Assembly: GCF_006345805.1 (NCBI RefSeq)
Contig: NW_021833695.1
Location: forward strand, 1-64,000
DNA: 64,000 bases
Source: Octopus sinensis
Taxonomy: Eukaryota
Direction: 5' to 3'
Shown one piece after another: positions 4,578-57,325 of this stretch; the stretch's first letter is position 1; each line of letters begins with the position of its first letter. The notes under the pieces are model-generated. The model was not told the DNA's origin and did not search any database. It saw only the letters and a program-made list of their open reading frames with translations. The translations under genes and the position numbers were made by a program.

Positions 4578-4769
4578 TAAAGAATGGAGTCGAACGAAGA
4601 TGTTAACAAAATTCCTTTAATCTCGACATATGTCGAGGCTCCCTTTCTTTCCTGATGCGAATATTGCATAATGCACCCTTTATTCCTTTGGAATGAAAAC
4701 ATGTTGTCTTCGAAACGTATGTCGAGAGTAAAGGAATTTTGTTAACATCTTCGTTCGACTCCATTCTTT
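4578..4769. repeat. Inverted-repeat (fold-back) cassette of PLE pseudo-LTR type
   Basis: Arms of about 54 bp (4578-4631 and 4717-4769) are near-perfect reverse complements. The spacer has CTGATGC...CGAAACGTA, a decayed HHR. Confidence 0.8.
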
Positions 4770-4950
4770 CATTTATTTATATATACACACACACATATAT
4801 ATATATATATATATATATATGTGTGTGTGTGTGCGTGTATGTATGTGTGTGTGTGTGTTTATATATGTATGTTGTGTCCAAGGAGAGTCATTATGCAAAT
4901 CAGATACATAAATGGAATATATATAAATATATATATATATATATATATAT

Positions 4951-5410
4951 ATTGATAAAAATGGTAAAACAGCAAAAGAATGAAAGAGACCTCGATATTA
5001 TATAAATGGAGGAATTTATCTGTAAATGTAATATGTGACAATTATTCGGTAGCCATGAAAAAACTCCGAGTTTCGGATGCCGTCATCTCTTCAGTTAAGG
5101 GCTAATACACCTTATTTTGGAAAGTCGCCAGACATCGGTTGAGGACTCTGCCCCGTAGAAGAATTCAATGTGGACGCCTACTACATCGATTATTCTATGA
5201 AAAACATACCTATACCATCAAGGGAACTATACTCTAAGAAACTTTTGGAGATTATTACAGACCTGATTAAGCGATGGAAAGCTTTCTTTTATAACATGGA
5301 AGAATGGCCGGATAACTGAAGAGATGGCGGCGTGGATTTCCACGTCGGCATCCGAAACTCGGAGTTTTATCATGGCTACCGAATAATTGTCACATATTAC
5401 ATTTACAGAT
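4951..5410. mobile_element. Fold-back PLE cassette: inverted HHR-bearing arms around a PLE ORF N-terminal fragment
   Basis: Arms ~5017-5097 and ~5313-5410 are reverse complements. The spacer (+, 5161-5318) translates EFNVDAYYIDYSMKNIPIPSRELYSKKLLEIITDLIKRWKAFFYNMEE, resembling the YSxKNIPIP...LIKRMRWKAFF N-terminus of PLE ORFs. (TA)n on both sides. Confidence 0.75.
5311..5371 (+). ncRNA. Type I hammerhead ribozyme motif, canonical core
   Basis: Stem I GAUAA/UUAUC; CUGAAGA 5316-5322; long stem II GAUG..CGUGG-AUUU-CCACG..CAUC; GAAA 5354-5357; stem III ACU-CGG-AGU; predicted cleavage after GUU (5366). An inverted copy with a shortened stem II lies at ~5057-5097 (-). Confidence 0.7.
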
Positions 5411-6689
5411 ATATATATATATATCTTATTTATCGATATACATACTCACGTGTTTCAAACAATAAGTACTATTCGAACGTTAACACACATTCCCCCCCCA
5501 CACACACACACACAGAAATCTACATACACATCCCGAAATATTCAGTTACATAGATACAAATCTTTAATTCTATAAACTCAAAATAAGATTTATATTAACA
5601 CACGCGCGAACACCAACATCAGTACACAGTTCTCCTGGTTCTACAAAAATGCATATATATGTATCAATGTATATATGTATGTATGTATGTATGTATGTAT
5701 GTATGCATGCATGTATGCATGTATGTATGTGTGTTTGTATGTATATGTGTGTGTGCGTGCGTTGGTGTGCTCATATATATGTCTGTGTGTGTGTGTGTAA
5801 ATATGTATGTATAATGCATGTAATTATATGTATAGGTATATTTATATATATATATGTATCTGTATATACATATTTGTACACATATATATATATACATATA
5901 TGATTACAAATATATATATATATGTTTGTAATTATGTATGTATACATATGTGAGTGTACATAAATGTATATATAGATACATACATTCACGCACATGTACG
6001 TATGCATATGTATGCATATACACCTACATACATACATACGTGTATGCGTGCGTGTGAGTCTTTTTCTGTGTATGTATTATTGCATCCAAGTATGGGCATG
6101 TGTTTGTGTTTGTGTGTATGGGCATAGGTGTATGTGTGTGTGTGTGTACGTGTATGTAACTATATATGTATATATGTATCCGTGCGTTACTATATTACCC
6201 TATGAAATGCTTCGCTTTAGAAATTCTCTCTTTATAAATTTCTCTATTTTTCTCGAAGTTTCTTCACTTTTCTGTCATCTGCAACATTTCCAAGAATTTT
6301 CAAGAATTTTTGCCTCAAGTTTATTGAGAGGAATGCATCAGCATTTACGTATAGAATTTTTCAATTCTTTCATTAGGATTGTCCTTGCAGTGAATATTTT
6401 ACACATGAAAGAAAGTATTATAAAATAGCAATGTGAAACAAGCAGATACAATCTATTGGCGAAGTTTATATCCCGAAGAATTCTTCAACGATTTAATACT
6501 TTATAAGATGTCATTTGAGTACATTTTAGAATACGCTACTGTTTCTACAACGGCGCTGTTCTGTCGTTCTACCATTCTGTCGTTCTGTTGTTCTGTCGTT
6601 CTGTTCTGTTATACATACTCTTATATCTGTCTCGTTTGTAACCTTGTAAATTTCAGTGTATATGCACACGCAAAGATCGCTTACAATCC

Positions 6690-7062
6690 TGTGAAACCTC
6701 GTGGTTTTGAGGTTCGATTCCACGGAGCAGCATCTTGGGCGAGTATCTTCGATTACAGTTCCGGACCGACCAACGACATGTGAGTGAATTTGGTAAAAGA
6801 AAACTAAGTGAAAGCCCTGCACATGTGTGTGTCTGTGTGTGTGTGTGTGTGTGTATGCGCACGTGTCTGTGTGCTTCTATGTGTATGCTTGTCGCCTCTT
6901 CACGACTTGTGTTCGTTTGTTGATGTCCCCGTTGCCTACTAGTTCGGTAAAAATGATCGACATAAATACCAGACTTTAAAAATAGTACTGGATTCGATCT
7001 GTTCCGATAAAACCCTTCAAAGTGGTGCCCCTGCTTGGCCGCCTTCCAGTAACTGAAACATG
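6690..7062 (+). mobile_element. Diverged family-A SINE
   Basis: gtgagtgaatttgg, internal (TG)n, and an ...aactgaaaca tail. Confidence 0.65.
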
Positions 7063-7081
7063 TATGTATGTATATATATAT

Positions 7082-54870: not shown

Positions 54871-55605
54871 CAGTGATTCTCAAAATTTCTTTCTTTTATC
54901 TATGAACCCCTTTGATTACTGTTTCACAGTGATGGACCCAACATGCATATTTAATGTTTTATAAAAACTTCTTTCAAAATCCCTATTTTGTGTATCACAT
55001 ACATGCTCCTTCTTTTACTTGTTTCAGTCATTTGACTGCAGCTATGCTGGAGCACCGCCTTTAGTCGGATAAGTCGACCCCAGGTCTTATTCTTTGTAAG
55101 CCTAGTAGTCATTTTATAAGGCCCTATTTTGCCGAACTGCTAAGTTACGGGGACGTAAACACACCAACATCGGTTATCAAGCGATGGAGGAAGGGGACAA
55201 ACACATGCACACAAACTTAAACACCCACACCAAACACACACACACACACACACACACATATACGACGAGCGTCTTTCAGTTTCCGTCTACCAAATCCACT
55301 CACAAGGCTTTGGTCAGCCCGTGACTATACTAGAAGACACATGCCCAAGGTGCCACGCATTAGGACTGAACCCGGAACCATATGGTTGGTAAGCAAGCTA
55401 CTTACCACACAGCCACTCCTGCACCTAGGTAAAGAAACCTATTTGTATCTTGCAATACATACCAATATATACATTTAAAGCAATTTTCTTTCCGGAGCCC
55501 TTAAAATACTATCGTGCATCCCTAGTTTACTATTTTGTTGCATAGACCCACAAAATTCTTATATGGATGCATAGGGGCCATATGGACCCCGGTTGAGAAC
55601 TATTT
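54871..55605. mobile_element. hAT-Charlie-type MITE with a nested family-A SINE
   Basis: Termini CAGTGATTCTCAA and GGACCCCGGTTGAGAACTATT. An adjacent partial copy lies at ~55665-55820. Confidence 0.7.
55011..55425 (-). mobile_element. Family-A SINE, full length
   Basis: Reverse-complement consensus match. Confidence 0.9.
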
Positions 55606-55833
55606 GCTAAAGGATTAAAGAATTGCAACATCATCATCATCATCATCATCATCACATCATCATCATTTTCCTATCTATGGATTCCTTTGATTCCTATTTT
55701 ACTCTGATAGACCCAACATAGCCATTCAATGTTTAGAAAAAAATAGTTTTATTGGTACTTCTTTCAAAATTCCTATTTCGTTCTTCAAACATTAACTTAT
55801 GTGAATGGGTATTACAGAATATATATATATAAA

Positions 55834-56080
55834 GGCGGCGAGCTGGCAGAACCGTTAGGACGCCGGGCGAAATGCGTAGCCGTATTTCGTGTGCCGTTAC
55901 GTTCTCAGTTCAAATTCCGCCGAGGTCGACTTTGCCTTTCATCCTTTCGGGGTCGATAAATTAAGTACCAGTTAAGCACTGGGGTCGATGTAATCGTAAT
56001 CCTTTAATCCGTGTTTCCACCATTTATCTGTCCTTGTTTGTCAACCGTCATGTTTAGCCACTTGTGGGTAATAAAGAAAC
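55834..56080 (+). mobile_element. Family-B SINE, full length
   Basis: ggcggcgagctggcagaaccgttagg... tail cttgtgggtaataaagaaac. Confidence 0.9.
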
Positions 56081-57056
56081 ATATATATATATATATATAT
56101 ATGCGTGTGCGTGATTATCTGTATGCGAGCGTCTATATATAAATATATGCATGTGTATGGCGTAGTGTGTGCCTGCGTGGTTGTGAGTGTGTGTGTGTGT
56201 GTGTGTGTGTGTGCGTGCGTGCGTATGTGTGTATGTGAAATGACTCTTGATGAGAACTTCCGACTATGAGTTCCCAAATGTTCCGTCTACTATGCTACCA
56301 GGTTCATTGCACTCCATCGAAACCTGTATACATAAACGATGAAGAAAAATGTTCAATACAATGTACAACCAACTAGAACTAGCGAAGGTGGTGTCCTAGA
56401 ATGGCCGTAGTCCAGTGAATGAAACTGCTGGAAAGGCAAGGAAAGAGCAATAACAAGACGACCAAACCTTTGAGAGGGAGACTGAAATGACAGAAACCGG
56501 TACCAGCTTGTTAGGGAGATATTATCTGTAATTAGAGTGCCTAGAATTGTCTCGCGCTAACTCACGGAGATTGTGAGTGAAATCTGGCATACTGCCGAGA
56601 CACAGGTTTTAAGATTTCAGGCCCAGTGTTTAAGGATTGCTGTAGGCTTAATTTTTTCAGGTTCAGATTCCAAGGTACGAAGCACAATTTAGGGTTGAGG
56701 TACAACCTTCAAGGTTTGAAACAGAGTGCTCAAAAACTGATGCACATTCCCTAAGAGTTGAGTCACAACTTCAAGGGTTTCGGTACACACTTCAAGGGTT
56801 TCGGTATAGTCTTTAAGGATAAACGTGATTATATGAGCTTTATTTCTTTGGAAAATAAGAAGAGAAGAGGAAGAGATACAAAATCGACCGAGCATAAGGG
56901 ACGAAACCGTGATGGCAGGTCGATATACCACGGTGCATTTATGTTGTGTATATGGATTTTATCAACGGAAAAAACAAATCGGAAAGAACAAAAACAGGCA
57001 CAGCTGTGTCGTTAAGAAGCTCGATGGCACAACCCCGCCCTCAAAAAAAAAAAAAA

Positions 57057-57325
57057 AAGACAGAGATAAGCGAGGGGGCAACAAACAAGATGTATCAGTT
57101 TTGATGGTCAAGAAGAATGAAGAAGTCCCTGAGGTTTTGAGGTTACGTTCTTGAACAGAAGCGCTGTCTCTTTTTCTCCGCTTATTTCCTCTCTCCATCT
57201 GTTTTCTTTCTTCATTCCTATCTGTTAAAGAGCGCAGGCTCAAAACATCAACGACGTCTCCGTTCTTCCTGAGAATCAAACTAATACACATTATTTGTTG
57301 TTCCCTCATCTGTCTCTGTCACTTT
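57057..57325. mobile_element. Old fold-back PLE cassette with decayed HHRs in both arms
   Basis: Right arm CTGTTAA-A-GAGC-GCAG-GCTC-AAAA-CA-TC; left arm (reverse complement) CTGTTCA-A-GAAC-GTAA-CCTC-AAAA-CC-TC. The downstream sequences are homologous. Confidence 0.6.

Follow-up and report, generated by a model that had tools for sequence, protein, structure and literature searches.

Short head-to-head insertions of Penelope-like elements in Octopus sinensis and the place of the predicted hammerhead ribozyme at their turning points

Endonuclease-containing Penelope-like elements (EN+ PLEs) are described, in the available parts of two accounts, to be typically found as 5'-truncated copies with an inverted companion, a tail on one side and (TA)n targets (PMC8557442; PMC3846280). 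The formation of their tandem and inverted inserts and the role of their hammerhead ribozyme (HHR) are given as open questions in the accessible text of the former (PMC8557442). The protein of an anole PLE was reported, in the portion of the study available, to cut and extend both strands of AT-rich DNA in vitro and to start reverse transcription at two sites that bound the tail; it is predicted to form a dimer, and HHR cleavage is dispensable (PMC11167929). The stretch described here, referred to as the window, comprises 64,000 nt of Octopus sinensis (assembly GCF_006345805.1, contig NW_021833695.1, positions 1 to 64,000) and is part of a microsatellite-rich 2.7-Gb genome. It carries six cassettes, each made of two inverted arms standing head to head, with the element 3' ends pointing outward on both sides in all six. 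The cassettes are very probably short, 5'-truncated, head-to-head PLE insertions, likely made anew by priming from both cut strands, a turn within the HHR being mainly a matter of where short arms end. The observation is real and the insertion type is a known one.

Compared with the complex insertions of EN+ PLEs (Craig et al. 2021, PMC8557442; Arkhipova et al. 2013, PMC3846280), as far as the available text of both goes, the cassettes share the head-to-head inverted copy, the tail at one end, the (TA)n bias, an HHR in the pseudo-long terminal repeat (pLTR), microhomology at the junctions and, in family 1 here, an asparagine-rich insert in the open reading frame (ORF). The tails are 30-40 there and ~65-150 nt here, both octopus arms are very short, and the one-sidedness of the tail is counted here (122/132). 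The anole element Poseidon PAc (Frangieh et al. 2024, PMC11167929) agrees in the two start sites bounding the tail, in the use of both strands and in AT-rich targets; the accessible part of that study reports no difference in start site between strands, whereas strand-assigned start sites are proposed here, and it holds neither an analysis of inverted junctions nor a link between start site and strand. In Schistosoma, opposite-strand pairs of minimal HHRs 100-700 bp apart were reported (PMC4209133, part available). Like the minimal type I hammerheads of PLE pLTRs and the non-LTR retrozymes, in the available portions of their descriptions (PMC4209133; bioRxiv 10.64898/2026.07.22.740005), the octopus families have a short palindromic stem III and tandem non-coding units (family 3); they differ in the long stem II of families 1 and 4, and the motifs here are known from sequence. 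None of the titles and abstract openings surveyed points to a placement of PLE inversion junctions along the HHR or to a tally of tail asymmetry, and supplements could hold such counts. In LINE-1 twin priming, two primers from the two target strands give cDNAs that are joined by microhomology, and the inverted piece is an upstream, non-overlapping part of the RNA. In the octopus cassettes both arms start at the element 3' region and overlap, and therefore form a hairpin, unlike LINE-1. Miniature inverted-repeat transposable elements (MITEs) and Foldback elements are short and non-coding, with terminal inverted arms and AT-rich sites. The cassettes are alike in their short non-coding inverted arms and AT-rich sites, but have no internal junction in common, are asymmetric at their ends and have retroelement 3' ends as arms.

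All six inverted pairs of the original prediction are present at the places it gave, and the outward orientation of the 3' ends was likewise found as described (Table 1). The arms of cassettes 1 to 6 are 94, 97, 92, 92, 79 and 75% identical to each other, and the cassettes are therefore diverged genomic repeats, not perfect read-level fold-backs. Contigs of four sequencing runs over cassette 1 contain the family and several other arm joints; no listed piece spans the stretch with the exact junction of the window. The reported preference for AT-rich targets is borne out by 9 of the 12 cassette flanks (75-100% AT), the other three being 50-60% AT; the flanks are microsatellite or AT-rich, so no target-site duplication is distinguishable. 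The earlier intervals are right in place and too short in extent in five cassettes (1 to 5), where one arm continues into a family-specific tail of ~65-150 nt; in cassette 6 no tail was established. The six cassettes represent six different repeat families: in a self-comparison of the window no cassette matches another, and each has its own genomic relatives. If transcribed, the cassettes are predicted to form RNA hairpins of -99 to -205 kcal/mol, as had been suggested. The cassettes themselves are dead stubs.

Further copies were sampled with short anchors near the 3' end, in genome order, because whole-cassette searches pick look-alikes. The samples comprise 100 of 874 exact anchor matches in family 1 (five long partners added), 77 and then 22 held-out of 1579 matches in family 2, 73 and then 21 held-out of 180 in family 3, 31 of 32 in family 4 and, less cleanly, 44 arms in family 5, where the best 30 among 41 DNA matches were used together with 8 matches to a pattern. 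Natural copies served as references, and arms beyond the reference range were censored. Six duplicated arms (L055, L331, L375, two in L294, L422), one arm with an N gap (L171) and four window arms of families 4 and 5 were removed before counting. Arm ends are given relative to the predicted HHR cut site, minus being 5' and plus 3'.

A tail-bearing arm is paired with a tail-less arm in 122 of 132 junctions (65.9 expected), and mixed arm-level pairs were again found in 12/15 and 17/17 cases at held-out loci. Of these 122 junctions, 73 have a tail-less arm with the greater 5' extent and 37 a tail-bearing arm, while in 12 both arms extend equally. The mixed pairing, together with a tail-less arm that often extends further 5', favors priming from both target strands over fold-back of a cDNA. 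In families 1-3, an overlap of at least 2 nt is present in 69-76% of the flush or overlapping junctions (30-36% simulated), and 41 of 105 junctions carry an insert instead of an overlap. Twenty-one tail-bearing arms consist of the tail only and have no sequence in common with the other arm. Many inverted arms of family 1 are of this tail-only kind (e.g., L047, L073, L077, L087, L091, L097, L099, L100, L105); in 9/40 junctions they stop at +128 to +153, at a distance of 58-83 nt from the far start, and thus give no visible fold-back.

For the favored priming from both strands the following sequence of steps is proposed. The PLE protein would nick both strands of AT-rich DNA; one strand would prime at the near start site of the reverse transcriptase (RT) and the other at the far site, the spacing of the two appearing as the 'tail'. 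Synthesis of both cDNAs would mostly be short, ending at a rate that is roughly constant along the template (4-8 ends per 1000 nt copied), and the 3' ends would then be connected, in many cases through microhomology of 1-4 nt or by way of a short insert. To be visible as a fold-back, a cassette would need two short arms that both extend beyond the near start, so that the end of the shorter arm would fall some 45-200 nt from the 3' end. From the pairing we infer a coordination of the two start sites with the two strands, and for the PLE system already established in vitro the near-strict pairing of tail-bearing with tail-less arms makes a specific prediction.

Several observations weigh against priming from both strands with freely ending arms. 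Near-symmetric junctions are in excess (19 observed, 10.3 expected, p 0.003), and the ends of the two arms show a weak correlation (Spearman 0.25-0.57) that reaches significance in family 1 alone; fully independent arms would give neither. The arm-length order of 37 junctions also fits a fold-back. The end rate is not flat, since significant heterogeneity appears whichever coordinate system is used among those tried; in family 2 the hot zone of ends beside the HHR is real, and family 1 has four ends within 1 nt of the cut site (1.2 expected). The five of six turns within the HHR in the window exceed expectation (P 0.03-0.10), driven by cassette 5. Family 5 was sampled from its best DNA hits and family 6 is without an unbiased sample, and the other samples, being the first exact-match anchors in genome order, favor younger copies.

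A complement to two-strand priming, possible in some families but with less than even chances, is that a subset of arms runs off an RNA 5' end set by an internal promoter of the initiator/downstream promoter element (DPE) type just upstream of the HHR. In family 2, 30 ends fall at -92..-57, a 35-nt zone that borders stem I on its 5' side (27.3 compared with 6.4 per 1000 nt); this zone was picked post hoc. With the zone fixed beforehand, it received 11 of 19 ends at held-out loci (34.6 compared with 5.1 per 1000 nt, p 7e-5). An initiator-like motif lies at -83 in this family, and 13 of 19 copies have a DPE-like motif at +28 counted from the initiator. In family 1, a post hoc cluster of seven ends at -149..-140 (16.1 per 1000 nt against ~4) starts at an initiator-like motif; here 21 of 32 copies have a DPE-like motif at +27, counted likewise. 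Both kinds of motif were called against what we take to be the initiator and DPE consensus sequences. Template U-content does not account for the ends. An internal initiator/DPE promoter was reported for the Penelope of D. virilis (PMC2377424, available part). On the other side, the rate ratio of the 35-nt zone is 0.93 in the other four families pooled, that is, no effect remains once family 2 is left out, and the family-3 zone (+52..+87), fixed beforehand, failed on held-out loci (p 0.42). The peak of family 2 (-70) is ~12 nt downstream of the motif in a zone 35 nt wide. The conservation of the DPE-like letters is otherwise explained because the same letters form the 5' strand of stem I. The family-2 zone may mark an RNA 5' end. 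A tentative and rather doubtful extension combines both ideas: an RT dimer would prime both strands in one event with one start site per strand, leaving each inverted insert one-tailed, and in some families copying of an arm would end where the RNA begins, at an initiator/DPE promoter in which HHR stem I also serves as the DPE, so that arm ends would map the transcription start of PLEs and retrozymes. A small post hoc cluster of family-1 ends at -62..-70 (L042, L048, L053, L060, L066, L075, L107), just 3' of the HHR core, comes from tail-bearing arms (9/10 ends in -80..-45).

Self-priming, in which one cDNA folds back and copies itself, was proposed from palindromic Adineta junctions in the accessible part of PMC3846280. 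The excess of near-symmetric junctions and the microhomology agree with it, and the arm order is compatible in 37 + 12 of the 122 mixed junctions. However, self-priming from the tail requires the tail-bearing arm to extend at least as far 5' as the other, and the opposite holds in 73 of the 122; cassettes 1, 2 and 5 are of the incompatible kind, and the 21 tail-only arms offer no sequence in common with the other arm. The model might still work with an antisense RNA as template. Fold-back, one of the two options in the original prediction, was thus not upheld as the main route in the form of a single self-copying cDNA and is improbable; given the near-symmetric excess, a minority of junctions may have arisen by fold-back or by joining guided by palindromes.

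HHR motifs were identified by pattern scan and by eye. A scan of the window with Rfam at gathering thresholds gave no HHR match, and a strict HHR pattern was found in cassette 1 only, the other families needing a bulge-tolerant or by-eye reading. The parts of a minimal type I hammerhead (core, stem II, GAAA box, short palindromic stem III, stem I) are present as pattern matches in cassettes 1 and 2; those of families 3, 4 and 5 were read by eye in family copies, and the motif of family 6 is degenerate. The HHR copy of cassette 1 is altered in core and stem II relative to other copies of the family. As a description, it is correct that the inverted homology stops within the HHR in five of six cassettes; cassette 3 holds no HHR, its arms ending 3' of the family cut site.

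This clustering was compared with a flat-rate simulation, in which a fold-back counts as visible if it is short overall and each arm extends ~45 nt beyond the near 3' end. The share of visible fold-backs whose homology ends in the HHR or within 10 nt of it is 11/13, 19/24, 2/23, 4/5 and 2/9 in families 1-5, and the geometric predictions are 0.88, 0.73, 0.07, 0.62 and 0.13; these fractions predate the correction of one double-counted and one wrongly merged junction. The low values belong to families 3 and 5, in which the HHR lies far from the 3' end. Turning points thus lie near the HHR mainly because the HHR sits close to the end of the element. This is a selection trap: in most families short visible fold-backs must end near the HHR. 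For the window, geometry predicts 3.0 of 6 (simulated P of at least five, 0.03-0.05) and the genome-wide family rates 3.3 of 6 (P 0.10, the rate of cassette 6 being set to 0.6 from the simulation). The window is a mildly lucky draw, mainly via cassette 5.

It is very unlikely that the place of template switching or fold-back is dictated by the HHR, through its structure or its cut end, as was originally proposed. Over 357 arms with 276 ends in five families, held-out loci included, the rate ratio is 0.70 inside the HHR (z -2.6), i.e., ends are rarer there, and 0.83 at the cut site; without family 2 the ratio inside the HHR is 0.88. Inside the HHR, 88 ends were observed and 108.7 expected for all arms, and 56 and 72.2 for inversion arms only (the latter pair predating the same correction). 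The cut site shows no excess, with 10 ends within +/-3 (9.0 expected) and 5 within +/-1 pooled over families (3.9 expected), and none of 43 arms at held-out loci ends there. Ends per 1000 nt at risk were compared between the HHR, an equal stretch upstream and the available stretch downstream; they are 4.5, 5.0 and 3.2 in family 1, 7.8, 18.3 and 13.5 in family 2, 4.0, 5.0 and 10.1 in family 3, 5.4, 2.9 and 7.1 in family 4, and 3.9, 7.8 and 5.8 in family 5, respectively. In addition, HHR mutants insert normally in vitro in the available part of the anole study (PMC11167929), and the families with a distal HHR rarely turn in it. In favor of a ribozyme-set turn stand the five of six cassettes and the four family-1 ends at the cut site, both given above, and an overlap of at least 6 nt in 7 of 14 junctions with both ends in the HHR (12/57 otherwise, p 0.04), a measure that palindromes inflate by construction. 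A universal landmark for arm ends was rejected, since random offsets align the families as well as the cut site does (42% of offsets) or the near 3' end (57%); the offset test covers these two, and the core, the 5' edge of the HHR and the far end were fitted only. Template U-richness or GC as the cause of stops was likewise rejected, with no significant effect (U-content rate ratio 1.05-1.36). The negative result takes away one tempting role for the PLE ribozyme.

The idea that the cassettes are MITE-like units moving as wholes is hardly credible: whole-cassette searches do return similar fold-backs elsewhere, but with different junctions; where the best matches do have identical junctions, these have their flanks in common or stem from tandem duplication (L002/L005/L006, all on one contig, and the neighbors L007/L010); of the 132 junctions, no more than 2 pairs agree in their coordinates, so that junctions differ between copies; family-1 head-to-head anchor pairs lie 92 bp to >2 kb apart; the six cassettes are of six families; and cassette 6 has no fold-back relative among 40 scored matches.

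The PLE origin and the inverted pLTR segments of the original prediction are supported, the arms being the 3' ends of six PLE families placed head to head. Evidence for an RT ORF comes from family 1, with an ORF-start fragment as the only ORF piece seen in family 2 (cassette 2). In locus L183 of family 1, a 561-aa frame with RT motifs lies upstream of the pLTR. Its match to Pfam RVT_1 is weak and under the cut-off (E 0.031), and PF01541 (GIY-YIG) likewise matches weakly, C-terminal to the RT, with E 0.004 (17.9 bits, cut-off 22.6), with no match when a longer query was used. The protein has 11 homologs, of which the best named ones are from Octopus. A head-to-head, 5'-truncated inverted neighbor copy is present at the 132 junctions in five families and in all six window cassettes, and a partial tandem or pLTR organization was seen in family 3 (L191, L278, L180) and family 2 (L025, L028, L031, L032). 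Family 3 is a non-coding, retrozyme-like tandem unit of ~560-570 nt (566 and 559 nt in L191 and L278) with an HHR in each unit; its copy in the window is without HHR.

The Neptune clade is marked by a CX2-5CxxC linker before the endonuclease, according to the accessible part of PMC8557442. A first assignment to this clade was rejected, as the linker was not seen in the translations of L071 or L183, where an N-rich stretch is found instead. This asparagine-rich insert of the family-1 ORF (L183:2672-4357, L071:1985-2896) lies between RT and putative endonuclease, as described for Adineta Penelope. In annotations, proteins related to the ORF appear under host names, as 'myb-like' or 'GATA zinc finger' proteins. 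A family-1 subgroup (L045, L076, L096, L104) has a different upstream sequence in common from -236 onward and represents a subfamily or a chimeric non-autonomous variant. In family-2 copies (window 5098-5303; L022-L032) a piece of the ORF start is joined to the region just 5' of the HHR, the joint differing in each copy seen, which suggests repeated template jumps near the putative RNA start.

Table 1. Arms and middle piece of the six cassettes in the window (arm ends relative to the predicted HHR cut site).
Feature	Position	Strand	Description
Cassette 1, tail-bearing arm	4416..4633	-	PLE family-1 3' end; ~150-nt tail reaching outward to 4416; 5' end at -8 from predicted cut (stem III), where the inverted homology stops
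Cassette 1, tail-less arm	4635..4783	+	From -88; type I HHR motif with core 4652, GAAA box 4712, predicted cut after 4723
Cassette 2, tail-bearing arm	4953..5097	-	~67-nt tail reaching outward to ~4953; continuous to -20, then 15 nt matching ~-53..-39 past an internal stem II deletion read from sequence; homology stops at -20 (stem II) in continuous alignment, at ~-53 (stem I) if followed past the deletion through these 15 nt
Cassette 2, middle piece	5098..5303	+	Sequence found after the tail in longer copies; includes PLE-like ORF start with deletions; translation matches locus L023
Cassette 2, tail-less arm	5304..5412	+	From -62; complete HHR motif with core 5316, predicted cut ~5366
Cassette 3, tail-less arm	23982..24076	-	5' end at +89; without HHR
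Cassette 3, tail-bearing arm	24088..24320	+	From +53; without HHR (family HHR upstream of both arms); tail reaching outward to ~24320
Cassette 4, tail-bearing arm	25086..25343	-	5' end at -99 (HHR core); long stem II; tail reaching outward to ~25086, outer end approximate
Cassette 4, tail-less arm	25346..25440	+	From -12 (GAAA box), where the inverted homology stops
Cassette 5, tail-bearing arm	31354..31636	-	5' end at -10 to -17 (stem II 3' strand), where the inverted homology stops; tail reaching outward to ~31354, outer end approximate
Cassette 5, tail-less arm	31644..31909	+	From ~-87; decayed HHR motif
Cassette 6, left arm	57045..57161	-	Old copy; ends at stem I 5' strand of degenerate HHR-like motif, where the inverted homology stops
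Cassette 6, right arm	57165..57335	+	Degenerate minimal HHR-like motif: core-like 57222, cut-like 57249

Further inverted pairs of the window at 9504-10402, 18009-18392, 48686-49231 and 49245-49389 were set aside, as they were not shown to be PLE arms. The pair at 18009-18392 consists of AT-rich inverted repeats of 54 bp that enclose a core of higher GC content, in which ~18130-18165 is HHR-like, and is possibly a seventh PLE-type insert. At 48686-49231 lies an element of ~550 bp with 32-bp terminal inverted repeats, whose sequence resembles a deleted mariner-type transposase. The pair at 9504-10402 belongs to a very abundant repeat of ~200 bp, probably the common octopus short interspersed nuclear element (SINE), with copies at 7500-7770, 17660-17860, 29740-30530, 31946-32160, 40250-40455 and 55010-55205. 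A frame of 191 aa with an RT-like motif at 47620-48195 is a fragment of a non-LTR retrotransposon. Just left of cassette 1, the segment at 4260-4370 resembles by eye a SINE head of tRNA origin.

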